Position numbers and translations under genes: made by a program. From the NCBI GenBank assembly GCA_041658885.1, contig JBAZZJ010000002.1, positions 14,649 through 78,648 of the forward strand: 64,000 bases of DNA. Reading direction: 5' to 3'. The notes below the pieces were generated by a model. The model did no database searches and had not been told where the DNA came from. It saw only the letters and a list, made by a program, of their open reading frames with translations. Of the stretch, positions 2,831 to 63,702 are shown in pieces. Position 1 is the first letter of the stretch. Every line of letters starts with the position of its first letter. The DNA comes from Minisyncoccota bacterium (GTDB lineage Bacteria; Patescibacteriota; Minisyncoccia; Phycocordibacterales; 21-14-all-36-13).

Positions 2831-3000
2831 ATGAATCCCCACACTAATCTTGATTTCGTTTGAAACAGATTAGTCTATAAAATAAGGGTGAATGGTGGAT
2901 TTTGAAGCAGGTAAAGAAACCACAGTAGTAGAGCAAAGCTCACTACGTGGCAAGCAAATGAGGTCAATATTATTAAAATTAAGATTAGTATAGGGATGAA
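2831..3000 (+). mobile_element. MITE-like inverted-repeat element, family A copy 1 (coordinates include the flanking ATGAA repeats)
   Basis: ATGAA-T-CCCCACACTAATCTTGATTT ... AAATTAAGATTAGTATAGGG-ATGAA. About 20-bp terminal inverted repeat, an internal hairpin CCACAGTAGTAGAGC-AAA-GCTCACTACGTGG, and the 3' ATG is the start of the next ORF. Confidence 0.6.
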
Positions 3001-3274
3001 CAGAAAAAGAAAATTATTTATGACATTGGGAATTATAATTGCTTTAATTCCTCTTTTTAGCATCCCGGTTGGTTTTAAGTACTTTTTTATAATAATTTTA
3101 TCACTTTGGATTGTTGGTTCCGCATTCCTTTCCGACAGAACGTTAAGTGATTTTGTTGCAAAGAAAATAGGGATAAGAATTCATAAAAAGAAATTAACTA
3201 TAAAAAAAGCCGAAAGTTTACTTTTTAGAGAAGATAAAAATGAAGAAAAAAAGGAAGAAGTAGAACAACCATAA
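2996..3274 (+). CDS. small membrane protein (92 aa, two hydrophobic helices, acidic/basic tail)
   Basis: ORF with LFMTLGIIIALIPLF and YFFIIILSLWIVGSAF hydrophobic segments. Confidence 0.5.
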   Translation: MNRKRKLFMTLGIIIALIPLFSIPVGFKYFFIIILSLWIVGSAFLSDRTLSDFVAKKIGIRIHKKKLTIKKAESLLFREDKNEEKKEEVEQP

Positions 3275-7316: not shown

Positions 7317-8798
7317 ATGAAGTATTATTTTTATCTTTTTATATTAATATTCGCGTTAGCATTACCGTGTTATGTTCACGCGGATATTTTTATTACAGAG
7401 ATAATGTATGACAACTCTGGTTCGGATACTGGAAGGGAATGGATTGAAATTTTTAATTCTGGTGGTGAATTGGTTGATATTACTGATTGGAAATTTTTTG
7501 ATGATTCTAACCATGTTTTGAATGAACCACCAAAAAACGCTAGCAGGGGCTCTCTTTTGTTAAGCTCTGGAGTATATATCATTTTGACCGGTGATGCGTC
7601 TCTCTTTATTTCGGAAAATTCATCATATTATGGTTCTGTTATAGATACCGTAATGAGTTTGAAAAATACTTCAGGGCAGGTTGGAATTTTAAATGCCGAA
7701 GGAACAGAAGTTGATAAGGTTTTATATGGTCAGGAAATTGGCGCGAATGGGGATGGAAACTCTCTACAAAAAACAAGCTCGGGATGGACGGCTTCTTCCC
7801 CAACCCTTGGTTCATCAGCATTTTCAATTTCGATAAATCAAAATAATAATTCTAACAACTCTTCAAATCAAAATATCTCAAGCAATCAAGCCACAAGTAG
7901 CAACAATACACGACCAGACTTAAGGCCTCAAATGTATGCTTTTGCTGGGGAAGATAAAACAGTTATTGTTGGGGCAGATACTTTTTTTGAAGGGAAGGCT
8001 TTTGGTTTAGAAAATAAAAAACTTGAGAATGCAGATTTTTTATGGAATTTTGGTGATGGTTCTATTAAAAAAGGAGAAAAGGTTTTGCATTCATATAATT
8101 ATCCAGGAAAATATGTAATTTTTTTAGATGTTTCGTCTGGGGAATTTTCAACAACAGATAGAATAAATGTAAATGCACTTCCTGCAGATATTATTATTTC
8201 AAATATAGGAAGAACTGATAAAGATAATTTTGTTGAAATTTACAATAAAACCAATAGAGAACTGGATTTATCATGGTGGCGGTTGCAGGTTGATAATAAT
8301 TTTTTTACATTACCAAAAAATACAATAATTTTACCGAACCAAAAAATCATTTTTTCTAAAAATACAACAAATTTAATTACAAAAGAAAACTCAATTGTAA
8401 ATCTTCTTTATCCAAACGGTAGTTTAGCTGTTTCTTTTAATAAAAACGAAGATATTGGTTCAAAAATTTCATACCAGAATAGTAATGTGACACAAACAAA
8501 CAAAAATTTATTAAATTTGAATGAAGAAGCAAACAAGAGTGTGAATATTGTAGCTGAAATGAAGAAAAATTCAAACGAGGCAAATAATTCTGCGTCAGTA
8601 GTAAATTCTGAAATTATTGAAAACACGGCTTCAAATAAGGATATTTTCAAGTGGGTGATAGCCTTATTTTCTGTGATATTATTATCAATTGTGAGTTATC
8701 TGTATGTCAGAAAAAATTCAACGAGGGGAGAACAAAAAGACCAAGAAGACATAGAAAAAATCTCAAACGAAATAGAAATTTTTGAGTCCCCACACTAA
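7317..8798 (+). CDS. lamin-tail-domain (LTD) x2 / PKD-domain protein with signal peptide and C-terminal TM anchor
   Basis: ITEIMYDNSGSDTGREWIEIFNSG (LTD), FLWNFGDGSIKKGEKVLHSYNYPGKYVIFLDV (PKD), a second LTD (FVEIYNKTNRELDLSWWRL) and the C-terminal helix WVIALFSVILLSIVSYLYV. Confidence 0.8.
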   Translation: MKYYFYLFILIFALALPCYVHADIFITEIMYDNSGSDTGREWIEIFNSGGELVDITDWKFFDDSNHVLNEPPKNASRGSLLLSSGVYIILTGDASLFISENSSYYGSVIDTVMSLKNTSGQVGILNAEGTEVDKVLYGQEIGANGDGNSLQKTSSGWTASSPTLGSSAFSISINQNNNSNNSSNQNISSNQATSSNNTRPDLRPQMYAFAGEDKTVIVGADTFFEGKAFGLENKKLENADFLWNFGDGSIKKGEKVLHSYNYPGKYVIFLDVSSGEFSTTDRINVNALPADIIISNIGRTDKDNFVEIYNKTNRELDLSWWRLQVDNNFFTLPKNTIILPNQKIIFSKNTTNLITKENSIVNLLYPNGSLAVSFNKNEDIGSKISYQNSNVTQTNKNLLNLNEEANKSVNIVAEMKKNSNEANNSASVVNSEIIENTASNKDIFKWVIALFSVILLSIVSYLYVRKNSTRGEQKDQEDIEKISNEIEIFESPH

Positions 8799-8952
8799 TC
8801 TTAATTTCGTTTGAAACAGATTAGTTTGTAAAATAGGGTAAAAACGGTGAGTTTTGAGATAGATAAAGAAACCACAGTAGTAGAGCAAAGCTCACTACGT
8901 GGCAAGCAAACAAGGTCAATGTTATTAAAATTAAGATTAGTGTGGGGATGAA
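8783..8952 (+). mobile_element. MITE-like element, family A copy 2
   Basis: TTGAG-T-CCCCACACTAATCTTAATTT ... AAATTAAGATTAGTGTGGGG-ATGAA with perfect 20-bp termini and the same internal hairpin as copy 1. It supplies the last codons and the stop of the LTD gene. Confidence 0.6.
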
Positions 8953-8957
8953 TAAAA

Positions 8958-9974
8958 ATGAATCAAAAAATAAAAATATTAATAACAACCGGGATTTACC
9001 CACCAAAAGTTGGTGGACCATCACAATATGCAAAAGAATTAGAGGAGGAATATAAAAGAAAAGAGCATACTGTAAAAGTAATAACGTATAAAATTGAACA
9101 CAAACTACCAATTGTTATTAGACACATAGCTTTTTTCTTTAAAGCAGTCTTTAATTTATTTGGTAAAAATTTTATAATATCTCTCGATACATTTAGCACC
9201 GGTTTCCCAACAATTCTCGCGTGTATTTTGTTTAGAAAAAAAAATGTAATAAGAATAGGTGGTGACTTTTTGTGGGAATCTTATGTAGAACGAACTGGGC
9301 ACATGATTCCATTGAATATTTTTTATTTCGGACATAAAAAGTTTTCTATAAAAGAAAAAATCATTTACTTTTTAACAAAATTTGTTTTAAATAATTCTGG
9401 TTCACTAGCATTTAACACAAAGTGGCAAAAGGATATTTTTGTTAGAGATTATAAACTTTCAGACAAGAAAAATATTTATGTAATAGAAAATTTTATTGGA
9501 GAAAAAGAAAAGTCCGAAAAATACAAAGAAAAGAACTTTCTTTGGTTTGTAAGAGATATTAAGTTGAAAAACGGCGATTTATTAAAAAAGGCCTTTTCAG
9601 AAGCAAAAGAAAAAAACGAGGAGATAATTTTAGAAACGGGAAATCTTTCTCACGAAAAATTGTTTGAAAAAATCAAGAGTTGTTATGTGGTAATATTACC
9701 CTCTTTAAGTGATATAGGGCCAAATTATATACTTGACGCTATAAGGTTTAATAAACCGTTTATACTGACAAAATATAGCGATTATTACGAGAAGTTCAAA
9801 AATATAGGCATTTTTGTTGATCCTTTAGACAAAGGAGACATAAAGAATAAAATACTTTATTTGGCAGACGAGAAAAATTATTTAAAACAACAAGAAAAAA
9901 TAAAACAATACAATTCCTCTCATACATGGTCAGAAATAGCAGAGGAATTTTTAAATATTTATAAGAAATTATGA
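8958..9974 (+). CDS. glycosyltransferase, GT4/GT1 (GT-B) family
   Basis: KILITTGIYPPKVGGPSQYAKEL N-terminus typical of GT4 enzymes. Confidence 0.75.
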   Translation: MNQKIKILITTGIYPPKVGGPSQYAKELEEEYKRKEHTVKVITYKIEHKLPIVIRHIAFFFKAVFNLFGKNFIISLDTFSTGFPTILACILFRKKNVIRIGGDFLWESYVERTGHMIPLNIFYFGHKKFSIKEKIIYFLTKFVLNNSGSLAFNTKWQKDIFVRDYKLSDKKNIYVIENFIGEKEKSEKYKEKNFLWFVRDIKLKNGDLLKKAFSEAKEKNEEIILETGNLSHEKLFEKIKSCYVVILPSLSDIGPNYILDAIRFNKPFILTKYSDYYEKFKNIGIFVDPLDKGDIKNKILYLADEKNYLKQQEKIKQYNSSHTWSEIAEEFLNIYKKL

Positions 9975-13332: not shown

Positions 13333-13466
13333 ATGAATCCCCCCGCTAATCTTAATTTCGTTTAAAACAAATTGGTATATAAAACAGGGCAAGTGGTAAA
13401 TTTTAAAATAAACAAAGAAACAAACAAGGTCAATATTATTAAAATTAAGGCTAGTGTAAAGATGAA
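13333..13466 (+). mobile_element. MITE-like element, family A copy 3 (shorter, degenerate arms)
   Basis: ATGAA-T-CCCCCCGCTAATCTTAATTT ... AAATTAAGGCTAGTGTAAAG-ATGAA. It lacks the internal hairpin and the arm substitutions are not compensatory. Confidence 0.55.
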
Positions 13467-14631
13467 CAAAAAAAAAATAATTTATTTAACCAATACAAGA
13501 CTACCAACGGAAAAAGCGCATGGTTTAGCCACGGTTAAAATATGTGAAGCGTTTGCCGATTTAGACTACGAAGTTACCATAATCTCACCTATTTTATGGA
13601 GAAAAAACCAAAAAGATGTTTTTTCTTATTATGATATAAAGAAAAATTTTAAAATCATTAAAATTTTTTCAATAGACTTAATTCCTTTTAAATTTTTTCA
13701 AAGAATTACATTTTTAATTCAAGTATTTTCTTTTTCAATATTTTCATTTTTTTATATTTTATTTAAGTATTGGAAATCATTGAATGATATTGTGTTTTTC
13801 TCGCACGACCACATTCCGCTATTTTTTATTTCGTTCATATCAAAAAATATTTTTTATGATATACACCATTTTCCAGATAGAAACTTTCTATATAAAAGAA
13901 TTTTGAAAAAAGCGTTTGGTTTTGGGACACAAACAAAATGGAAGATGAATATGTTAAAAGAAAAATTTGGCATCAATTTTAATAAAATAATATATTGGCC
14001 AAACGGTACTGATATAAAAAAATTTATGTTGAGTATTTCTCAAGATGAAGCAAGAAAAAAACTCAAACTACCAGAAAAACAGAAAATCGTTCTTTACGTT
14101 GGATCTTTAATTAGTTGGAAGGGGGTGGATTCTCTGGTCGGTACAATAAATTTTTTATCAGAAGATATATTCATATACATAGTCGGTTCTTCCCCAGAAG
14201 ATATAAAGAGATTTAAAAAAGAATTTCCGATAGCAAATCACGAAAGAGTAATATTTATTCCTTTTCAACACACAAATATAATTCCGATTTGGTATAAATC
14301 GGCAGACGTATTAATTCTTCCAAATACTGGTAAACAAAAAGTTTCTACTTTTTATACATCACCGATGAAACTTTTTGAATACATGACTTCTGGTGTGCCT
14401 ATTATTGCGTCCAAAATTTTATCTATAGAAGAAATTGTGAATGAAAATTTAATTACATTTGCAGAAGCCGATAATCCAAAATCTTTCGCAAATATGATAG
14501 AATCAGTACTTAAAAACGAAAATGTATCTAGAAATAAGGCCTTATTAGCACAAAAGAAAGTTTTTGAGTATACGTGGTTAAAAAGAGCTGAAAAAATAAC
14601 AGATTACATAAATAATTTTAAATTTTTTTAA
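13462..14631 (+). CDS. glycosyltransferase family 4
   Basis: Start moved from track position 13372 (inside the repeat element) to the ATG at the element's 3' end, by analogy with the other copies. Motifs EKAHGLATVKICEAFADLDYEVTI and YTSPMKLFEYMTSGVPIIAS. Confidence 0.75.
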   Translation: MNKKKIIYLTNTRLPTEKAHGLATVKICEAFADLDYEVTIISPILWRKNQKDVFSYYDIKKNFKIIKIFSIDLIPFKFFQRITFLIQVFSFSIFSFFYILFKYWKSLNDIVFFSHDHIPLFFISFISKNIFYDIHHFPDRNFLYKRILKKAFGFGTQTKWKMNMLKEKFGINFNKIIYWPNGTDIKKFMLSISQDEARKKLKLPEKQKIVLYVGSLISWKGVDSLVGTINFLSEDIFIYIVGSSPEDIKRFKKEFPIANHERVIFIPFQHTNIIPIWYKSADVLILPNTGKQKVSTFYTSPMKLFEYMTSGVPIIASKILSIEEIVNENLITFAEADNPKSFANMIESVLKNENVSRNKALLAQKKVFEYTWLKRAEKITDYINNFKFF

Positions 14632-19929: not shown

Positions 19930-20080
19930 TAATATTAGCGAATTGCTTATCCCGTTAGAGATAAAACACGAGATACACATACAAAATAAGTAAAATGAGA
20001 ACGATAGCATTAAACAAAAATTATAAGTTAAAAAATTATGGATTGAAAAGTCCATTTAGGACTTTTCAATTTCTAATGAG

Positions 20081-21448
20081 ATGAAAACGATTTTTCTTTT
20101 TATATATCATCACTCCCATATATCTGACCTATTGAATACAAAATACATTGAATACCTTAGTTCAAAATATAAGATTGTTGTTATCTTGCCCAAAAGGGAA
20201 GGTGAAACTTCTGCAAAGAGTGGTAATTATTTTAAAAATAATAATATAGAATATGAAGAATATTCAATGGTTAATGTTAAGTGGTGGTATAGGTTTAAAC
20301 TTTTAAGAGCGTCTTGCGTAAGAAAATTTGATTATCTTCTCCATTCAAAAATAAATTATACAAGAAACAAATCAAAAGACGAAAGAAGAATCGTATTAAG
20401 AATAATTTCTCGTTTGTTGCCGATGAAATTTACAGACCCAAAGGTTTTTACATTTCTTGAAAAAATATTTACAAAGAAATCAAAACAATTTGATGAATAT
20501 GTTAAAAAATATAAACCATCATTAATTTTGACAGCCACTCCCGGGTTTACATTTTTTGAAGCGGAAGTAATTATTCTTGCTAAAAAAGCCAAAATACCAA
20601 CCACCGCCATTAACTTTACTTGGGACAACCTTACTTCAAACGGTAAGTTAATAAGAAAAACTGATTATTTAATTGTTTGGAATAATATTATTAAAAAAGA
20701 AGCAAAAGATTTTCATAATTATCCTCTTGAAAATGTTTTTATTTCTGGAAGCTTACGATTTGATTGTTATTTTGAAAAAATGAATGGCGAATTGAAAAAA
20801 GAAGAATTTTTAAAAAGCAAAAATCTTGACCCGAAACTCAAAACTATTTTTATAGCGACAATGTCGCAAAATAATTATCCAGCTCACACAGAACTGATAG
20901 AAGATATTTTAAAATTTAGAGATGAAAAAAAGATAAAAGAGAATGTAAATATTTTTGTTAGGGTTCATCCTAAAGACAGCGTTTCACTTTACGAACATCT
21001 AATAGATAAAAATATCAAAAATTTTCATATTGAAATTGCTGGTACACAAATAAAAAAAGACGGAGCTAAAGGACAAAAAATACAAATGGACGAAGAAGAT
21101 ATTTTAAATCTTAAAAATACTTTGATGAATATAGACATATCAATAAATCCTTTTTCAACGATGTCTTTGGAATCAATGATTTTTGATAAACCAGTTATAA
21201 ATATAGGACTCATAAAAGAATATAGACCAGCTTTGTATTATTTACACTACAAGCCACTTTTAGATGCAAAATCTGTAAGAGTTGCTTTTGATAAGAGACA
21301 GCTGGTTAAACATATAAATGCATATCTTGAAAACCCAAAACTTGATTCTGATAACAGAAAAAAAATAGTAAATGACTTTGTATGTTTTACAGATGGACTA
21401 TCATACAAAAGAAATGTTGATTTTTTGGATGAAATTTTAAAAAGATAA
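20081..21448 (+). CDS. TagB/TagF-like GT-B protein, paralog 3 of 4 (most divergent)
   Basis: KYKPSLILTA..AKKAKIPTTAINFTWDNLTSNG..LIVWNN..KKEA..FDKPVINIG..FTDGLSYKRNV. Confidence 0.4.
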   Translation: MKTIFLFIYHHSHISDLLNTKYIEYLSSKYKIVVILPKREGETSAKSGNYFKNNNIEYEEYSMVNVKWWYRFKLLRASCVRKFDYLLHSKINYTRNKSKDERRIVLRIISRLLPMKFTDPKVFTFLEKIFTKKSKQFDEYVKKYKPSLILTATPGFTFFEAEVIILAKKAKIPTTAINFTWDNLTSNGKLIRKTDYLIVWNNIIKKEAKDFHNYPLENVFISGSLRFDCYFEKMNGELKKEEFLKSKNLDPKLKTIFIATMSQNNYPAHTELIEDILKFRDEKKIKENVNIFVRVHPKDSVSLYEHLIDKNIKNFHIEIAGTQIKKDGAKGQKIQMDEEDILNLKNTLMNIDISINPFSTMSLESMIFDKPVINIGLIKEYRPALYYLHYKPLLDAKSVRVAFDKRQLVKHINAYLENPKLDSDNRKKIVNDFVCFTDGLSYKRNVDFLDEILKR

Positions 21449-26836: not shown

Positions 26837-27932
26837 AGTCATGCACATTTCGGACACGAAAAAGGTATAGAATATTATTATTAAATAATTAAACCTCGTG
26901 TCATCATGTGAAATATCAAATATATACAACATTTCAAAAGAAAAACATTATTAATCAAGTAGAATCATCAAAGGACAAGAAAAGAGAATTAATCAAGTTA
27001 AATATATCAAGAAGTACATATTATGAATGGAAAAACAATAATGGAGAAACAAAAAGCAAAGCTCCAAACACAGTATGGAACAAGACTCCACAGAGTATTG
27101 AACAAACAATAGAAGAATATCGTTTGAGTGGAGAAAAAACAAAGAACTCTCCTATGAGAATAGTAGAGAACTTGGAAGAAAGAGAGGGATATGTAATGAG
27201 TGAATCAGGAGTTAGGTCAGTATTGAAAAGAAAGAAGTTAAATTCATTAATCAGAGTAAAAAAAAGATACTATCATATTAGACCAAAAGCGGAGAAGTTT
27301 CTTGATGTTGTATGTTTTGATGATGTTGAGTTCACAAGAAGTAAACCAAGAGATACATATATACTTAATTTTATTGATGAATCATCATATTTAGACTTAA
27401 AATCAATAGTTTTAGAACATAGAATAAACAGATGCGATATTACTAAAGGATTAAAGATCATTAAAAAGAAATATGGTAGATATCCTAAAACAGTTCGTTG
27501 TGATAATGCACAAGCACACAAGAGTATTTTGTTAAGAACATTTTGTTTAAAAAATAATATTAAGATAGATTACATAACAAGTGGATGTCCTGAGGAGAAC
27601 TGGCCCGTGGAATCATTTCACAGAAATCTTAATCAAGATATTATCTATCAGAATGGATTTAGAGATATTAAAGAATGGCAGAGAGTTATTGATAATTACA
27701 CAGAATTTCATAATAAACAAAAAAGATTAAGGTTTGATCCAATACAGAGAACTCCACATGAAATTGCCTTTGCCTATACAACCAAACTCACGCAATTTAG
27801 ATTAAAAACCAAGCTTCAGAGAAAATTACACGGACAAACCTCTGTACAGAAATGGGTGGATAAGAAAATTTTAAGTGATTATCAAAATGTTATTAGTTTA
27901 AGCCATATACCGTGTCCGAAATGTGCATGACT
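26837..27932 (+). mobile_element. insertion sequence with one DDE (rve/integrase-type) transposase, IS481/IS3-like
   Basis: Perfect 22-bp terminal inverted repeats AGTCATGCACATTTCGGACACG (26837-26858) and CGTGTCCGAAATGTGCATGACT (27911-27932). The right repeat encodes the transposase C-terminus. No clear target duplication seen. Confidence 0.8.
26908..27930 (+). CDS. DDE transposase (integrase core domain), GTG start
   Basis: N-terminal HTH-like region, VVCFDDVEF, NFIDESSY, VRCDNAQAHKS and NWPVESFHRNLNQD (D, D, 35-residue spacing, E). Confidence 0.8.
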   Translation: MKYQIYTTFQKKNIINQVESSKDKKRELIKLNISRSTYYEWKNNNGETKSKAPNTVWNKTPQSIEQTIEEYRLSGEKTKNSPMRIVENLEEREGYVMSESGVRSVLKRKKLNSLIRVKKRYYHIRPKAEKFLDVVCFDDVEFTRSKPRDTYILNFIDESSYLDLKSIVLEHRINRCDITKGLKIIKKKYGRYPKTVRCDNAQAHKSILLRTFCLKNNIKIDYITSGCPEENWPVESFHRNLNQDIIYQNGFRDIKEWQRVIDNYTEFHNKQKRLRFDPIQRTPHEIAFAYTTKLTQFRLKTKLQRKLHGQTSVQKWVDKKILSDYQNVISLSHIPCPKCA

Positions 27933-35809: not shown

Positions 35810-35907
35810 AAATTTCAAAAAAATTCTTGTTTTTACTTTCTTTATATAAGATAATTAATACATATTAAAGTTGTGATGTTGTTAATTTATGCGAAATATT
35901 TTTTAAT

Positions 35908-35992
35908 CCAGCACTTATTTTTGTAACCAATTATTTTTCCACTATTAATTTTTTATAATATTTTTTGAATGGGAAACAAAAATAAGTGCTGG
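35908..35992. repeat. inverted-repeat element, family D copy 3
   Basis: CCAGCACTTATTTTTGT (35908-35924) is the perfect reverse complement of ACAAAAATAAGTGCTGG (35976-35992). Confidence 0.75.
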
Positions 35993-36057
35993 AAAAAAAT
36001 AAGGTCGGACATCTTCAACTAAAATACTTTGACATTAAGTTAAAGTAAAAAATAAAA

Positions 36058-48670: not shown

Positions 48671-48693
48671 TGTCAAACACCCGGTGTTTGACA
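48671..48693. repeat. REP-like palindrome P1
   Basis: TGTCAAACACC-C-GGTGTTTGACA, followed by a partial copy of the promoter cassette. Confidence 0.85.
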
Positions 48694-48765
48694 ATTTTGC
48701 GATAGTTGATAAAAGAAAAATTTTTTCTGATACGCGTGATTTAAAAAGATTTATGTTAAACACCA

Positions 48766-48788
48766 TGTCAAACACCGGGTGTTTGACA
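48766..48788. repeat. REP-like palindrome P2
   Basis: TGTCAAACACC-G-GGTGTTTGACA (the central base is flipped relative to P1 and P3). Confidence 0.85.
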
Positions 48789-49321: not shown

Positions 49322-49369
49322 TTAGACTATAGATAAGAATATGGCTTGTAGCATATCAAACATCTTGTA

Positions 49370-49392
49370 TGTCAAACACCCGGTGTTTGACA
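49370..49392. repeat. REP-like palindrome P3
   Basis: TGTCAAACACC-C-GGTGTTTGACA. Confidence 0.85.
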
Positions 49393-49416
49393 ATTTTGTG
49401 ATAAAAGAAATATAAT
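49387..49416 (+). promoter_or_regulatory. consensus sigma70 promoter of the Y1 transposase gene
   Basis: TTGACA, 18 nt, TATAAT. The ATG lies only 7 nt after the -10, so the mRNA would be leaderless or nearly so. Confidence 0.6.
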
Positions 49417-49423
49417 ATATGTT

Positions 49424-50092
49424 ATGAATAGAGAAAATATCTCAGTAGATGAGCATTATCATATTTATAATAGGGGAGTTGGCAAAAAGATAATTTTCAA
49501 AGACGAAAGAGATCGGATTAGGTTTCTTTTTATAATTTTGTATTTTCAAGCAGAAAATTATTTTCCCCAAATTTCTAGAATTATTTCTTCATATGTCAAA
49601 CACCGGGTGTTTGACATAGATGATGATGTTAAAAGTCAGATAATTAAAGAAAGATTTGTGGAATTAGTTGGTTTTGTTTTAATGCCCAACCATTTTCATC
49701 TTATTGTAAAAGAAGTAAAAGAAGGAGGAATGGGTAAATATATGCAACGAGTTTTAAATTCTTATGCAAAATATTTTAATGCTCGCTATGGTGTATCTGG
49801 ACATCTTTTTGAAAGTCCCTATAAAGCAGTGCATGTTGAGGATAATGAACAGCTTTTATATCTTTCTGCTTATGTACATTTAAATCCAAAAGAATTAAAT
49901 TTGTGGAATGGGAAGGAAGACATTTTTCCTTGGTCAAGTTATCAAGATTATGTTAGAGAAAATCGTTGGGATGAAATTTTAAAAACGGAAATTATTTTTG
50001 AACAATTTAAAAACAAAGGAGAATACAAAAGTTTTGTTCAAACCAGTGGTGCAAAAGAAAAGAACGAAGAATTCAGTTTAGATTTAGATTAA
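49424..50092 (+). CDS. IS200/IS605-like Y1 (HUH) transposase of the REP-associated (RAYT) type
   Basis: YHIYNRGVGKKIIF, HUH motif LMPNHFHLIV, GHLFESPYKAV and catalytic-Tyr region LSAYVHLNP. Confidence 0.8.
   Translation: MNRENISVDEHYHIYNRGVGKKIIFKDERDRIRFLFIILYFQAENYFPQISRIISSYVKHRVFDIDDDVKSQIIKERFVELVGFVLMPNHFHLIVKEVKEGGMGKYMQRVLNSYAKYFNARYGVSGHLFESPYKAVHVEDNEQLLYLSAYVHLNPKELNLWNGKEDIFPWSSYQDYVRENRWDEILKTEIIFEQFKNKGEYKSFVQTSGAKEKNEEFSLDLD
49593..49617. repeat. REP-like palindrome P4, inside the transposase coding sequence
   Basis: ATGTCAAACACC-G-GGTGTTTGACAT, a perfect 25-nt palindrome translated in frame as YVKHRVFDI. Confidence 0.85.
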
Positions 50093-50180: not shown

Positions 50181-51368
50181 TTAATTCGTGTCTTTTATTG
50201 AGAGGGAATATTTTAGTCCGAGCAGAACAAAAATTCCAGTGGCTAAAAATATATATTTTAAATCAAAAAATATTAAAAATACACTTCCAAATATCGGAGC
50301 GATTAGATAAGCAATTGGTCCGGCCATTCTAAAAAAAGTTAGAATATCAGTATCGGAACTATCTGTATTTTTAAAAAAGTAAGTTTCACTCATTGATTCT
50401 ATCATCGCGGCTCCGATTCGCGTGCTGAACAAAACTAATGACCAAACAATTAAACTCGAACTAGTTATATAAGAAACAATCATCGTTGTAATCGCTAAAA
50501 TAATAAAACCAATGTTTAGGATTTCTTTTTCCCCGAATTTGCTGTCAGATAATTTACCAAGAGGGTATTCCAAAAGCAGGTAGGCAAACATTGCTACGGT
50601 TAACATAATACCCATTGAATTGAAATTGAAACCTATATGATTAAGCAAATACATTGGGGTATATATAACCATTATTGCAAAAAATACTCTCATTATTATA
50701 CTAACTACAAAAATATTTTTTATATCTTTGTTTTTTCTAAATCGCCCAAATGTCTTCCAAAATTTTAATCTTTTATATTCTGGATCTCTAAACTTTCTGA
50801 AATTTGAACTGAGTAAAAATACTACAGGGATAAGAAAGACAAGAGATATCAAATATGCTTTCCAGTAATATCCTTTTCCAACTAAAAACCCAGCCAAAAC
50901 AGGAACAATTACCCAGGCAAGATTGTTCATAGTTAAATACGCTCCTCTTATGGCACCGGTTTTTTGATCTTTTGAATTGTGCTCAAGCAGAACATCTACA
51001 TTCATTCCGAATGTAAGATTAAAGATAAAGTGCACAAAAAAAGCCAGAATTATAAAAATCAATTTATTGAAAACAACCATACCAACAATTGCGAATATTT
51101 CAAGAAGAATCAAAGACATCATCGTTCTATAATCGCCGAATTTTTCAATAGACTTTGTTGCGGCTATAATTCCAAGAATTGCCAAAAAAGATCCTACCGC
51201 AAATACAATTCCAACAAACTGTTCACCTATAAAACCAGAGAGAAATGAAGAATTTATATATAAAGGTATCCCAATATGTAAGACCAAAAATATTGCAATC
51301 AGATTTATTATCCAAAGAGAATTCTTCTTTAAATCCCTGAAATCAAAGTTTTTTATTATTTCTTTCAT
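50181..51368 (-). CDS. MFS transporter
   Basis: 395 aa with about 12 hydrophobic helices in a 6+6 arrangement and a basic central loop. Confidence 0.75.
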   Translation of the reverse strand: MKEIIKNFDFRDLKKNSLWIINLIAIFLVLHIGIPLYINSSFLSGFIGEQFVGIVFAVGSFLAILGIIAATKSIEKFGDYRTMMSLILLEIFAIVGMVVFNKLIFIILAFFVHFIFNLTFGMNVDVLLEHNSKDQKTGAIRGAYLTMNNLAWVIVPVLAGFLVGKGYYWKAYLISLVFLIPVVFLLSSNFRKFRDPEYKRLKFWKTFGRFRKNKDIKNIFVVSIIMRVFFAIMVIYTPMYLLNHIGFNFNSMGIMLTVAMFAYLLLEYPLGKLSDSKFGEKEILNIGFIILAITTMIVSYITSSSLIVWSLVLFSTRIGAAMIESMSETYFFKNTDSSDTDILTFFRMAGPIAYLIAPIFGSVFLIFFDLKYIFLATGIFVLLGLKYSLSIKDTN

Positions 51369-51487
51369 CCCGTTAGAAGCAGGTCGCGGTCAGCTATATT
51401 CTGCTAGATTAAATTGTTAATTTGAAATACTTTTTTCCTTATTATTATAAGTCCTGTTTTGAAACCGTGACCGCGGCTTCTAACGGG
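51369..51487 (-). repeat. inverted-repeat element, family C copy 3, filling the rnj-MFS intercistronic gap
   Basis: CCCGTTAGAAGCAGGTCGCGGTC ... GACCGCGGCTTCTAACGGG. On the coding (-) strand it reads ATGGA-T-CCCG...CGGG-ATGAA, with the last ATG being the MFS start. Confidence 0.7.
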
Positions 51488-51495
51488 ATCCATAT

Positions 51496-53484
51496 TTATA
51501 CAGCCAACACAACGGGAATTACTAACGGTTTTTTATCAGTCTGTTGAAGTAAAAATTTTCTTACACTATCTGTTATGTTTGTCTTTATGTAATCAAAGTT
51601 TATAGGGTATGAACCCGCGGTTGATTCCTCAACAACCTTTTTTATTATTAAGCGAGTTTGCTGAAGTAATTCTTGTGATTCTCGTAAATAAACGAAACCC
51701 CTTGAAATTATATCAGGAGATTTTCTTAATTTACCAGTTCGTGCATTTATTGTTGCCACAATAATAAATATACCATCTTCTGCGAGCAGTCGTCTGTCTC
51801 TTATAACAACATCTTGCATATTTCCAATTGAAAATCCGTCAACCATAACTGGGTCAGAAGGGGCTTTTTCTTTTCTCATACTAATTTTTTTGCCGTGTTC
51901 TGTTATTTCAATTACCGAACCGTTATCCGGAATCACTATATTACTTTTTGGTAGACCGAGACTCTCTGCAAGTTCTGCATGAATACGAAGCATAAAATGA
52001 TAACCATGAAGTGGGATAAAAAATCTATGCGGAATTTGTTTGTGTATCCATTCCAATTCCCCACGATTTCCATGCCCGCTTGCGTGAACGTCTGAATCAG
52101 CATAAGTTATTATTTTTGCATTTTGTCTATAAAGATTATCTTTAAGTCTCGTGATAGATCTTTCATTCCCTGGAATTGCAGATGCAGAAAACAAAATCGT
52201 ATCTGACGGTTCCAATTTTATAAATTTATGTGTTTTACTTGCGATTCTATCAAAAACAGAATATTCCTCACCTTGAGCTCCTGTTGCAATTACTACAACT
52301 TTATTTGAAGGATAATTTTTCATCTCTTCAATAGGAATAATGTTATCTAACTTTACCAAGTTAAGTAGGCGAACAATCTCTATGTTTGTTTTCATACTTC
52401 GCCCATCAATTACAACTTTTTTGTTATAATGTTGAGACATTTTTATAAATTCCATAATACGCTCAACTTGTGAAGCAAACGTTCCAATAATAAGTCGCCC
52501 CGGAACATTTTTCATTATTTCATTTATTGTTTCAATTACACGAGATTCAGGAATAGAAAACCCGGGTTTTTCAACGCTTGTAGAATCCATAGTTAACAAA
52601 AGCATCTCCTCGTTTTTAAATTGCGCGTAGCGTTTAATTTCCTTTTCAGTAGGGACTCCATTTATATGTTCCAGCCTCACGTCTTCTATAAATGCAATTT
52701 TGCCGACAGGTGTTTCTATAATTAATCCCATTGAATCTGGTATTGCGTGTGAAATAGCAAAGAAACTTATTTTAAAATGTTTCCCGATTGTCATTGTTTC
52801 GTCACCTTGAATTATATTCATATTCAAAGTAGGTAAGTCAGGAAATTCTGCTTGTCTTTTTTCTATTGTATATGCGCCAAATTGTCTTGAATAAATAGGC
52901 GGATTTCCAATTCTATCTACTATATAGGGGATAGCCCCAATATGGTCGTAGTGTCCGTGTGTTATGAAAATGGCCTTTATTTTTTTCTTCATTTTTTCCA
53001 AATATGAAATGTTTGGAAGAAGAAAATCTATACCAGGCGTTTCTGCCTCACTAAATTGAAAACCACAATCAACAACAATTATATCGTCCCCATATTCAAT
53101 AACCGTCATGTTTTTTCCAATCTCTTCAACCCCACCAAGAGGAACAATTCTAAGAACCCCGTCTTTTATTGGCGGAACACGACTCTCGCTGGTTATATTT
53201 TTATTCTTTTGGCTTTGTTCAAAGTTTGATTCAAAAACAGTATCTTCAAAACCTTCATTATAGACCTTTCTTTTTTCAGGAATTTTAATTTTTCTTTCCG
53301 TCTTTTTGTTATGTTTTGTTTTTAAATACGCGGGTGTGAAAGTATCTTTTTCTACGACGCTCCCTGTAATATCAGGAAGAAGATGCGTTACTTCTCTCTT
53401 ATCTTTATTTTTTGAAGAAGAAAAATGTCTATGAAAATTTTTTCCGCCTCGTTTTCTATTTTTATTTTTTTGTTCGTCGTTCAT
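51496..53484 (-). CDS. rnj: ribonuclease J with an about 100-aa basic N-terminal extension
   Basis: LRIVPLGGVEEIGKNM, FITHGHYDHIGAIPY and SGHGNRGEL (beta-CASP). Confidence 0.9.
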   Translation of the reverse strand: MNDEQKNKNRKRGGKNFHRHFSSSKNKDKREVTHLLPDITGSVVEKDTFTPAYLKTKHNKKTERKIKIPEKRKVYNEGFEDTVFESNFEQSQKNKNITSESRVPPIKDGVLRIVPLGGVEEIGKNMTVIEYGDDIIVVDCGFQFSEAETPGIDFLLPNISYLEKMKKKIKAIFITHGHYDHIGAIPYIVDRIGNPPIYSRQFGAYTIEKRQAEFPDLPTLNMNIIQGDETMTIGKHFKISFFAISHAIPDSMGLIIETPVGKIAFIEDVRLEHINGVPTEKEIKRYAQFKNEEMLLLTMDSTSVEKPGFSIPESRVIETINEIMKNVPGRLIIGTFASQVERIMEFIKMSQHYNKKVVIDGRSMKTNIEIVRLLNLVKLDNIIPIEEMKNYPSNKVVVIATGAQGEEYSVFDRIASKTHKFIKLEPSDTILFSASAIPGNERSITRLKDNLYRQNAKIITYADSDVHASGHGNRGELEWIHKQIPHRFFIPLHGYHFMLRIHAELAESLGLPKSNIVIPDNGSVIEITEHGKKISMRKEKAPSDPVMVDGFSIGNMQDVVIRDRRLLAEDGIFIIVATINARTGKLRKSPDIISRGFVYLRESQELLQQTRLIIKKVVEESTAGSYPINFDYIKTNITDSVRKFLLQQTDKKPLVIPVVLAV

Positions 53485-53654
53485 CCTGTTAGAAATTGAA
53501 AAATTTGTTTAAGACTTTTCAATCCATAATTTTAACTTATAATTTTTGAATTTGTATTGTAAATATTAAACGCCAGATTAAAACAGAAAATATTAAGGGT
53601 TAAAATGCTCTCCCAGAGATTTTCAAATATGGATGAAAATCTGGCACTACTCTT

Positions 53655-60451: not shown

Positions 60452-60515
60452 AAGATTGTTCCCAATTTGTTCAAGAGCGTAGCGATTGAATACAAATCGC
60501 AATCCCCCATATGGC

Positions 60516-60605
60516 GGAGAGGTGGCAGAGTGGTCTAATGCACATGCTTGGAGAGCATGAGTTCGGGAAACCGGACCGCAGGTTCAAATCCTGTCCTCTC
60601 CGCCA
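60516..60605 (+). tRNA. tRNA-Ser (anticodon GGA), class II, CCA encoded
   Basis: Acceptor GGAGAGG/CCTCTCC, 3-bp D stem, anticodon stem CATGC/GCATG with loop TTGGAGA, long variable arm GTTCGG-GAAA-CCGGAC, T loop TTCAAAT, G73, CCA. Confidence 0.85.
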
Positions 60606-60611
60606 TGTGGG

Positions 60612-60669
60612 GGAGAGAGCATGGGTCCATTAACGCGGATTGCAGGTTTAAATCCCATACCTTCCGCAA
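60612..60669 (+). pseudogene. degenerate tRNA-Ser 3' half (anticodon loop to 3' end)
   Basis: GAGAGCATGGGTCCATTAACGCGGATTGCAGGTTTAAATCCCATACCTTCCGCA aligns with GAGAGCATGAGTTCGGGAAACCGGACCGCAGGTTCAAATCCTGTCCTCTCCGCC of the intact gene. The T stem no longer pairs. Confidence 0.6.
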
Positions 60670-63340: not shown

Positions 63341-63349
63341 TTATCCACA
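63341..63349 (+). promoter_or_regulatory. perfect DnaA-box consensus TTATCCACA upstream of the ribonucleotide reductase gene
   Basis: Exact 9-mer, about 350 nt before the RNR ATG. Confidence 0.4.
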
Positions 63350-63563
63350 GAGCTTTAGTAAATTTTTTGTTGTAAAATTAAAATCCACTAGAAAACTATT
63401 AGTTTTTTATAAAAACATGCCAGAAAATCAGAAAAAAGTTGAAAAAAATATTGAAAAAGTAAAAAATTTTGATGTTTTTGTAAAAAAGTATTAAAAAGAG
63501 ACGGATTAATCGCCTCTTTTAATATGAATGTGTTTAAAATTTATTGAAAGAACAAAAAAATAA

Positions 63564-63702
63564 ATGAATCCCCACACTAATCTTAATTTCGTTTAAAACA
63601 GATTAGTTTATAAAATAGAATGAGTGGTGGACTGTTGAGTAAATAGACAAAAATAACAAACAAGGTCAATATTATTAAAATTAAGATTAGTGTAGGGATG
63701 AA
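63564..63702 (+). mobile_element. MITE-like element, family A copy 4
   Basis: ATGAA-T-CCCCACACTAATCTTAATTT ... AAATTAAGATTAGTGTAGGG-ATGAA. The 3' ATG is the RNR start. Confidence 0.6.

Follow-up and report, generated by a model that had tools for sequence, protein, structure and literature searches.

Among the small inverted-repeat elements without coding sequence that are known in bacteria are the Correia elements (NEMIS or CREE) of Neisseria. These are 100-160 bp long, with terminal inverted repeats of ~26 bp and a short target duplication. A genome has at least tens of them, most of which directly precede genes and are co-transcribed with them, the long hairpin that they form in the mRNA being a substrate of RNase III. 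Some Correia subtypes carry promoters (PMC10969869). Here we describe F1, a family of comparable elements, four copies of which (c1 to c4, Table 1) lie in a stretch of 64,000 nucleotides from a Minisyncoccota bacterium (contig JBAZZJ010000002.1, positions 14,649 to 78,648), referred to below as the window. [quoted passage not shown]

F1 resembles the Correia elements in that it is small and non-coding, with inverted termini and a target-site duplication. However, Correia elements duplicate TA and F1 duplicates ATGRR, and Correia elements are not flush with start codons and are found in both orientations. There is no sequence similarity between the two, their inverted repeats are unrelated, and so are the host phyla (a patescibacterium as against Neisseria).

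Other dispersed repeats are like F1 in some respects. The REP2 repeats of Neisseria and the inverted repeat of Borrelia plasmids are also dispersed upstream of unrelated open reading frames (ORFs) and also end in ATG (PMC3184786). REP2 is without terminal inverted repeats or a duplication, and has a recognisable promoter and ribosome-binding site. In F1 it is the other way round: the termini are inverted and the target is duplicated, but a Shine-Dalgarno sequence is missing and so is a clear promoter. The palindromic elements of Rickettsia (RPEs) are, like F1, small palindromic mobile repeats, which persist within or next to genes as they spare the reading frame (PMC10969869), but RPEs are in frame within coding sequence and are translated, whereas F1 remains outside the ORF by regenerating its start codon. 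The ERIC (IRU), RUP and BOX elements are likewise imperfect palindromes of ~100-130 bp, intergenic and transcribed, whose RNA hairpins affect the fate of the mRNA (PMC3184786). Unlike F1, they have no start-codon target and no ATG-containing duplication, and their orientation is not fixed. F1 is also distinct from a palindrome-associated element (PATE) derived from an insertion sequence (IS) of the IS200/IS605 type, in that its ends pair with each other and its 3' repeat is variable host sequence.

The safe havens known for transposons include tRNA genes, terminators, REP sequences, attTn7 and the start sites of RNA polymerase III. The literature searched, which included reviews of bacterial MITEs, contained no bacterial element with a start codon as its duplicated target, and none in Patescibacteria. 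As a MITE, F1 is of a known kind; its start-codon target is unusual, and undescribed in that literature. If the preference is mechanistic, it would be a new mode of target selection in an under-studied phylum with tiny, dense genomes. If it is a matter of survivorship, it would be a case of an insertion made harmless by a rebuilt start codon and by a decoy ORF that runs across the element's own hairpin. F1 bears in addition on how translation is initiated in Patescibacteria without Shine-Dalgarno sequences, and on how a 22-bp helix at the AUG is tolerated by the essential rplM, rplQ, rpsR, ValRS-like and ribonucleotide reductase genes.

The F1 family and its target-site duplications

After removal of duplicates, the F1 catalogue contains at least 21 distinct copies at at least 14 independent loci, drawn from the window and from three to four closely related Paceibacteria-type species (related loci are numbered with the prefix L). 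A search with the invariant 3' block against one genome per species (185,579 species) identified nine loci in the Patescibacteria metagenome-assembled genome KR11_S3.mb.10 (here KR11), which apart from one chance match was the sole further organism with matches. A looser scan of metagenomes, in which the arm pattern gave mostly chance matches and nhmmer was used as a filter, added copies in Ga0180732 (the same population as KR11), Ga0265292 and Ga0180009. KR11 has at least 11 F1 loci and the window four. One F1-host protein carries the NCBI label Candidatus Paceibacterota. The viral contigs searched gave no match to F1, or to the second family F2 described below.

The elements are 123-129 bp long, or about 160 bp with a secondary hairpin (range 123-161 nt), and the only coding capacity is an ORF of 5-10 codons. 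Their arms are inverted repeats of 21-22 nt, with a complementarity of 100% in c2, 95% in c4 and 86% in c1; those of c3 are decayed. Within the window the 20-nt terminus has seven matches at up to three mismatches, against 0.03 expected from shuffles. The predicted RNA folds are very stable, at -56.7 kcal/mol for c2 (z = -8.1) and -31.1 kcal/mol for c4 (z = -4.6).

An earlier reading of the window, made from the letters alone and here called the original prediction, had listed these four copies with common 5' and 3' blocks, and direct reading and alignment bear this out. It also described correctly the ATGAA that follows every copy and is the gene start in c1, c3 and c4, the ATGAA(T) that precedes three copies and is replaced by TTGAG in c2, the three decoy ORFs, and the position of the true start at the foot of a helix of ~20 bp (the arms being 21-22 bp). 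The extra hairpin that it limited to two copies (CCACAGTAGTAGAGC-AAA-GCTCACTACGTGGCAAG, 31-35 nt) is indeed identical in c1 (2920-2954) and c2 (8872-8906), and neither their orthologues nor any other locus has it, which suggests gene conversion or a nested mini-insertion. The ATG that follows c4 is the genuine start of the reductase, as related reductases keep a basic N-terminal tail and have no second Met.

In most F1 copies the flanks read ATGAA-[T CCCC...GGGG]-ATGAA. At rplQ of L116 (protein MRHH...) they read ATGAG on both sides, at rplM of L045 (MEIY...) ATGGAA on both sides, and at rplM of L116 (MKKY...) ATGAAA on both sides, while in L117 a single ATGAA is common to two tandem copies. 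Since the 3' repeat follows the gene, and encodes the N-terminus of that gene, it is duplicated host sequence and not element sequence.

The corresponding empty sites are found in relatives. At rplQ, which is filled in L116, there is a single ATGAGACAYCA in L131, L135, L139 and L142, and a single ATGAAACATCA in L136. In the species with this empty site L17 is 68-79% identical, and the gene belongs to a tight rpoA-rplQ-rplM-rpsI operon. At rplM, comparison of the empty site in L139 (...GAATTTGTTTAAttaatATGAATAAAG) with the filled site in L116 (...GAATTTGTTTAAatatttttATGAAA[F1]ATGAAAAAATAT) places the 5' repeat at the ancestral position of the start codon. The reductase gene is empty in L145 (tgtagtaattATGAAAAAAAC) and filled in c4, and its relatives at 81-83% protein identity are without F1. 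All three empty sites have one ATGRR each. Taken together, the flanks and empty sites fit a duplicative insertion by staggered cut, of the DDE type, and exclude models that assign the 3' ATGAA to the element.

The latter models include derivation from an IS200/IS605-type element (Y1, single-strand) or another site-specific element. Elements of this kind go in beside a specific pentamer, in one fixed orientation and with no duplication, and the 3' ATGAA would be part of the element. Such an origin would suit the strict orientation to an asymmetric target. A second Paceibacteria-like species, from the same sample as the window, also has a Y1 transposase gene (L146/L147 1-144) close to its reductase locus. 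However, where the gene differs the 3' repeat differs too (ATGAG, ATGGAA), and it codes for the N-terminus of that gene. The F1 ends, moreover, are long, paired terminal inverted repeats, not separate subterminal hairpins. Contradicted by the rplQ and rplM flanks, this origin appears largely refuted, and we regard it as extremely improbable. With a 3' repeat made of host sequence and different from gene to gene, the models of IS200/IS605, integron attC and site-specific recombinases were all rejected. As for attC, the core sites that bound its imperfect palindrome, downstream of a cassette ORF, have the order RYYYAAC...GTTRRRY. By inspection this order is reversed in F2 and in a third family, F3, which begin with GTTAGA (5') and finish with TCTAAC (3'), and F1 has neither.

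F1 has the structural features that define a MITE: it is below ~500 bp and without transposase coding, its termini are inverted, its duplications vary with the site, and it occurs as dispersed copies with both filled and empty sites. The one exception is a related autonomous IS with the same inverted repeats, which was not found in the window or the related loci searched. A MITE with a target-site duplication is what the original prediction had proposed, and the empty sites that it advised looking for in relatives were found at rplQ, rplM and the reductase gene; these and the variation of the flanks with the gene support it and make it stronger.

Table 1 Positions of F1 copies and of elements of other families. 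Positions are those of the window unless a locus is given.
Feature	Position	Strand	Remarks
c1 5' duplication ATGAA	2831-2835	+	opens decoy ORF MNPHTNLDFV* (2831-2863)
c1 F1 element, 160 nt	2836-2995	+	5' arm 2836-2856, 3' arm 2976-2996; extra hairpin 2920-2950
c1 3' duplication ATGAA	2996-3000	+	ATG is start of 92-residue membrane-protein gene 2996-3274; gene caller agrees
c2 degenerate 5' repeat TTGAG	8782-8786	+	within last codons of upstream LTD/PKD-domain gene 7317-8798
c2 F1 element, 161 nt	8787-8947	+	perfect 21-bp arms 8787-8807 / 8928-8948; extra hairpin 8872-8902
c2 3' ATGAA	8948-8952	+	not gene start; 35-codon out-of-frame ORF only; glycosyltransferase gene starts at 8958
c3 5' duplication ATGAA	13333-13337	+	opens decoy ORF MNPPANLNFV*
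c3 F1 element, 124 nt	13338-13461	+	arms decayed, arm duplex only about -12 kcal/mol
c3 3' duplication ATGAA	13462-13466	+	ATG is start of 389-residue group-1 glycosyltransferase gene 13462-14631
c4 5' duplication ATGAA	63564-63568	+	opens decoy ORF MNPHTNLNFV*
c4 F1 element, 129 nt	63569-63697	+	arms 63568-63589 / 63678-63699
c4 3' duplication ATGAA	63698-63702	+	ATG is start of B12-dependent ribonucleotide reductase gene, which extends past window end
F2 (TCCCGTTAGAAGCCGCGGTCA...TGACCGCGACCTGCTTCTAACGGG)	51369-51488	-	flush with start of MFS transporter gene 50181-51368
F3 (TCCCGTTAGAGAT...ATTTCTAATGAG; 3' end TTCTAAYRRG)	19950-20080	+	flush with start of gene 20081-21448; no 5' ATGAA preserved
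F3, 5'-truncated or diverged	53485-53570	-	3' half ends ...TTTTCAATTTCTAACAGG, flush with start of RNase J gene 51496-53484
F4 (CCCGTAGTAGAAAATGACAT...ATGTCATTTTTCACTACAGG)	L148 555-700		occupies reductase start codon; flanks TTGAA and ATGAA

Some details of the surroundings of c1 and c2 may be added. Between c1 and the promoter-like sequence TGTATAAT there is a 65-nt inverted-repeat insert (TTTACCCCGTGG...CACAGGGTAAA, 2761-2826); at the orthologous locus of KR11 (L007) the promoter is 9 nt from the 5' ATGAA. The stop codon (TAA) of the LTD/PKD-domain gene falls in the 5' arm of c2. This copy marks a break of synteny with L002 of KR11, where the upstream LTD/PKD gene is orthologous and the downstream gene different: a glycosyltransferase in the window, and in KR11 an ORF of 263 residues that starts at the ATG of the element.

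Start codons, orientation and a proposed mechanism

Of the 14 independent loci listed, 13 have a real ORF that begins with the ATG of the 3' repeat. The genes downstream encode L13, L17, S18, the reductase, CsoR, glycosyltransferases, membrane proteins and a ValRS-like aminoacyl-tRNA synthetase, the last being named from its PPPNVTGxLHxGH motif only. When the copies made by elements are removed, the window has ~242 ATGAA sites in genes, 20 at starts and ~22 in other non-coding DNA, so survivorship alone predicts ~48% of copies at starts. The excess at starts (13/14 against ~48% expected among non-disruptive ATGAA sites) has p = 6e-4, and is the enrichment at start codons that the original prediction implied. 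The orientation is that of the downstream gene in 21 of the 21 F1 copies listed and in all four F2 copies. The last ~22 nt before the ATG would be identical in either orientation. The fixed orientation therefore points to selection on an internal asymmetric feature, or to an oriented mechanism.

F1 is inserted by a staggered cut at an ATGRR pentamer, the duplication of which gives ATGRR-[T CCCC...GGGG]-ATGRR. In the surviving copies the pentamer is almost always the start codon of a gene plus two bases, and the ORF remains intact because the duplication rebuilds the start codon flush with the 3' arm. The native initiation region is left ahead of the decoy ORF of 5-10 codons, which spans the whole 5' arm, with stops in all three frames, and the real AUG is placed at the base of a predicted helix of 21-22 bp. 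The start-codon niche would then result from a sequence preference for ATGRR, together with the loss of copies that landed elsewhere or were reversed.

For the gene to be expressed, the helix at the AUG presumably has to be neutralised, and there are three candidate ways. Ribosomes from the upstream ATG may translate the decoy ORF and melt the helix (a), which would expose the AU-rich 3' arm and the real AUG to initiation independent of a Shine-Dalgarno sequence; this is a tentative first choice. Alternatively, a promoter inside the element near the conserved TATAAAAT may start the mRNA 3' of the 5' arm (b), so that no helix is formed. Such an internal promoter would explain the fixed orientation, and we hold it to be possible at a slightly lower level of confidence. 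Finally, RNase III may cut the helix (c), by analogy with the Correia elements, which we think unlikely. In MS2 (coat to replicase) and with the erm leader peptides, upstream translation opens a helix that masks a downstream start. This coupling is an analogy to (a) only, as MS2 and erm are evolved regulatory devices and not insertions.

The DNA of the window, which is also on record as part of contig k141_468478 in ENA assembly ERZ27247322, is 31% GC, and Shine-Dalgarno sequences are nearly absent upstream of its genes. In several window genes (49424, 1788 and 18790 among them) a TATAAT-like box precedes the ATG by 7-9 nt. The rarity of Shine-Dalgarno sequences, together with these boxes near starts, suggests leaderless or short-leader mRNAs. 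As to F1 itself, a -10 box 6-8 nt before the 5' ATG, of the kind that a leaderless start would have, is seen by eye at only ~5 of 15 loci.

A number of observations weigh against the account given above. The window and the related loci searched, which add up to about 200 kb, gave no autonomous element or transposase with F1 ends, and the same DNA contained no additional inverted-repeat pairs with F1 ends. The ~20 of 49 window ORFs scanned against Pfam include one transposase gene, which is within an IS at 26837-27932 whose ends are unrelated to F1, in keeping with the earlier statement that no transposase in the window has matching ends. The length of the duplication is ambiguous: it is 5 nt, counting the T...A tips with the repeats would reduce it to 4 nt (TGRR), and at rplM it is one base longer. 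The 5' and 3' repeats differ at three F1 loci, where the 5' one reads TTGAG (c2/L002), ATGGGC (L071) and ATTCA (L006b, a copy that adjoins a truncated one). A symmetric inverted-repeat element moved by a DDE transposase should land both ways, so that an asymmetric function inside the element, and selection for it, have to be invoked to account for the fixed orientation. A sigma-70 scan found no promoter conserved across copies (c1, c3 and c4 were scanned for promoter and terminator). The substitutions in the arms are mostly G-to-A in the outer 3' arm, and weaken the sense-strand helix, with a mean arm energy of -24.0 kcal/mol for sense and -27.7 kcal/mol for antisense over copies that are not independent; for this reason the helix is probably not the selected feature. 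In addition, the copies were found by element-derived patterns, which inflates the apparent conservation of those 21-22 nt, and the species sampled are few and closely related.

It is worth adding that gene callers extend ORFs into F1. L17 is called with 138-139 residues instead of 116 (rplQ of L116/L152), and the same is seen at 13372 of the window. The reason is that no stop interrupts this frame for 11-33 codons ahead of the real ATG (...NKVNIIKIKISVGM), and as a result N-termini in genome bins of the candidate phyla radiation are mis-annotated at such sites. A protein search for mis-extended ORFs, using the in-frame translation of the 3' half of F1 (...NKVNIIKIKISVGM), gave no matches.

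Conservation, RNA structure and possible host roles

Three of the window loci have orthologous regions in KR11, and F1 is present in all three. Orthologous copies share private internal signatures (for example c4/L004/L063/L150, and c2/L002), and c2 and L002 also share their unusual TTGAG flank. The identity of orthologous elements is 88-97%, as against 68-86% in the flanks (300 nt each side), where third positions of identical codons match in only about 60-74% of cases. In binomial tests of element against flank, three of five pairs have p of 7e-10 to 2e-6, and the remaining two have 0.008 and 0.07; the result persists once the 21-22 nt of the search pattern are removed. By this measure F1 is not simply decaying, as its orthologues are more conserved than the flanking coding DNA. 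The original prediction had seen decay of a mobile repeat in copy 3; this is correct for the arms of c3 and does not hold for the family.

The same assembly has, on a different contig, an rplM copy that matches c4 at 100% identity over 133 nt. On the evidence of this identity and of the c1/c2 hairpin, recent exchange between copies does occur. We infer that the homogeneity of F1 copies is due to purifying selection, to gene conversion, or to both.

F1 could also be a purely selfish MITE with neither an effect on the host nor a role in it. The similarity of orthologues would then come from conversion or from repeated insertion at hot-spot ATGRR sites, and the bias for starts from survivorship. 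This would agree with the c4 and rplM identity within one assembly, with the 35-nt hairpin that is identical in c1 and c2 only and missing from their orthologues, with the decay of c3, and with insertions of more than one family at the same starts (F1 and F2 at rplM, F1 and F4 at the reductase gene). However, free homogenisation would erase the private signatures that are kept between orthologues, a fixed orientation needs selection on something internal, and with survivorship alone roughly every second copy should be at an intergenic ATGAA that is not a start. An element with no host role therefore seems rather unlikely to us.

The internal function could be that of a domesticated expression cassette, in which F1 is kept for its promoter and 5' leader, and its position and orientation reflect that function. 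This overlaps with mechanism (b) and is compatible with an origin as a MITE. It would explain why the orientation is fixed though both termini are alike, and why orthologous copies are conserved above flanking coding DNA. A -10-like TAAAAT/TATAAA is kept in most F1 copies, and F1 and F2 have in common a subterminal stretch with a TATAAT-like box, GTTT[CG]AAA(A)CAG...TTATAA[AT]A, at the same offset in spite of their different arms. In c4 the scan finds TTTAAA-18-TAGAAT inside the element, with a terminator-like hairpin just upstream. Promoters in MITEs are well documented (PMC10969869), and F1 would then resemble the REP2 repeats or the promoter-bearing Correia elements of Neisseria. Against this, the consensus scan shows no sigma-70-type promoter (-35, spacer and -10) conserved across copies. 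The -10-like box is not accompanied by a -35 at a distance of 16-18 nt, and at 31% GC boxes like it are common by chance. Moreover, c1 has a strong native promoter upstream (TTTAAA-17-TATAAT, 2731-2759), and other copies are in tight ribosomal-protein operons with no obvious need of a promoter. A cassette of this kind is possible, and we put it forward with reserve.

A last candidate is a conserved structured leader RNA (a riboswitch, thermometer or attenuator-like device) of a regulon, not mobile at all. The very stable predicted fold would agree with it, as would the retention of F1 at orthologous sites in sister species. In the long arm helix 93% of cells are paired over 21 copies, and one arm change is compensated (T-A to C-G, in L001 and L010). 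No other position has changed in both arms (2 cells). Among sequences as similar as these, 30 of 500 shuffles attain the covariation score, which does not rise above that of the shuffled controls. At position 11-173, 16 of the 21 copies have a C.A mismatch. There is also an alternative, proximal pairing of CTAATCT with AGATTAG, in which 96% of cells are paired; it has zero compensatory changes, and is broken in L001 and L010, where the arm has changed. The pairing on which the original prediction based its attenuator-like switch therefore exists, and the switch itself receives no support from covariation.

Other properties of F1 also disagree with a leader RNA. The downstream genes have no common theme, the duplications vary by site, there are empty sites in relatives with 79-83% identical proteins, and the variable core accommodates a 35-nt insertion. 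Rfam 15 gives nothing at the gathering threshold for the whole window or at E<=1 over elements (c2 and the c4 region); the sole weak match, to SpF25 (E = 0.044), does not reach the threshold and concerns the opposite strand. The original prediction had named a conserved cis-regulatory RNA as the alternative to be favoured if distant relatives kept the element with compensatory changes. This is not what is found, since F1 is kept in a narrow clade only and has the one compensated arm position. A leader RNA is disfavoured, and we consider it very improbable. The helix beside the AUG looks tolerated or eroded rather than selected.

Other families and neighbouring repeats

The T-CCC...GGG-A tips of F1 are common to at least three more families, F2 to F4 (Table 1), of which F2 and F4 share its start-codon niche. 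The arms of the families are unrelated, and three of F1-F4 show the ATGRR/TGRR duplication. The F2 copy in the window is flanked by ATGGA (51493-51489) and ATGAA (51368-51364). Other F2 copies have identical flanks, ATGGA in L067 and ATGAA both in L117 and at rplM in L131. The end of F3, ...TTTTCAATTTCTAAYRRG, directly precedes the ATG of gene 20081-21448 and that of the RNase J gene. Elsewhere, an F3 copy in L033 is flanked by ATGAA on both sides, and one in L071 is off a start codon and without ATGAA. The species with F4 (L148) is as close to KR11 as is that of the window, and the reductase start that F4 occupies there carries F1 in the window, in KR11 and in L150.

It is suggestive that more than one family has inserted at two of the start codons, those of rplM and the reductase gene; with few checks made, this is not significant. 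F1-F4 might form a superfamily whose transposase homes to start codons, perhaps by reading the initiation region of genes with leaderless or short-leader mRNAs, or their open complex. At such sites the elements would have no phenotype, the start codon being rebuilt by the duplication and the hairpin unzipped by the decoy ORF that the native start drives. The repeated hits on the same starts would be a sign of targeting and not of chance. This wider idea is speculative, and we give it limited credence.

The IS at 26837-27932 is 1.1 kb long and looks complete, with perfect 22-bp inverted repeats (AGTCATGCACATTTCGGACACG) unrelated to F1-F4. Its ORF of 340 residues has an integrase-core (rve_3) domain.

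The conserved leader upstream of the ribonucleotide reductase gene contains a DnaA-box-like TTATCCACAG (63341-63349), which is kept in L143, L145 and L146, so that relatives have it whether or not they carry F1. Downstream of it the window has a small ORF and a hairpin that resembles a terminator (63494-63520).

Further repeats in the window include the perfect palindromes TGTCAAACACCCGGTGTTTGACA, repeated at 48671-48788 and 49361-49625, which constitute another repeat family around 48.7-49.6 kb. Two more inverted-repeat units, at 2529-2663 and 35901-35999, have common CCAGCACT(A/T)ATTTTT arms. Finally, the tRNA-Ser gene (60516-60605, within 60503-60614) has an extra stem of 13 bp (TCCCCCATATGGC / GCCATGTGGGGGA) that lengthens the acceptor stem and may be a processing helix of the precursor. 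The tips of this stem resemble the T-CCCC...GGGG-A tips of the elements.

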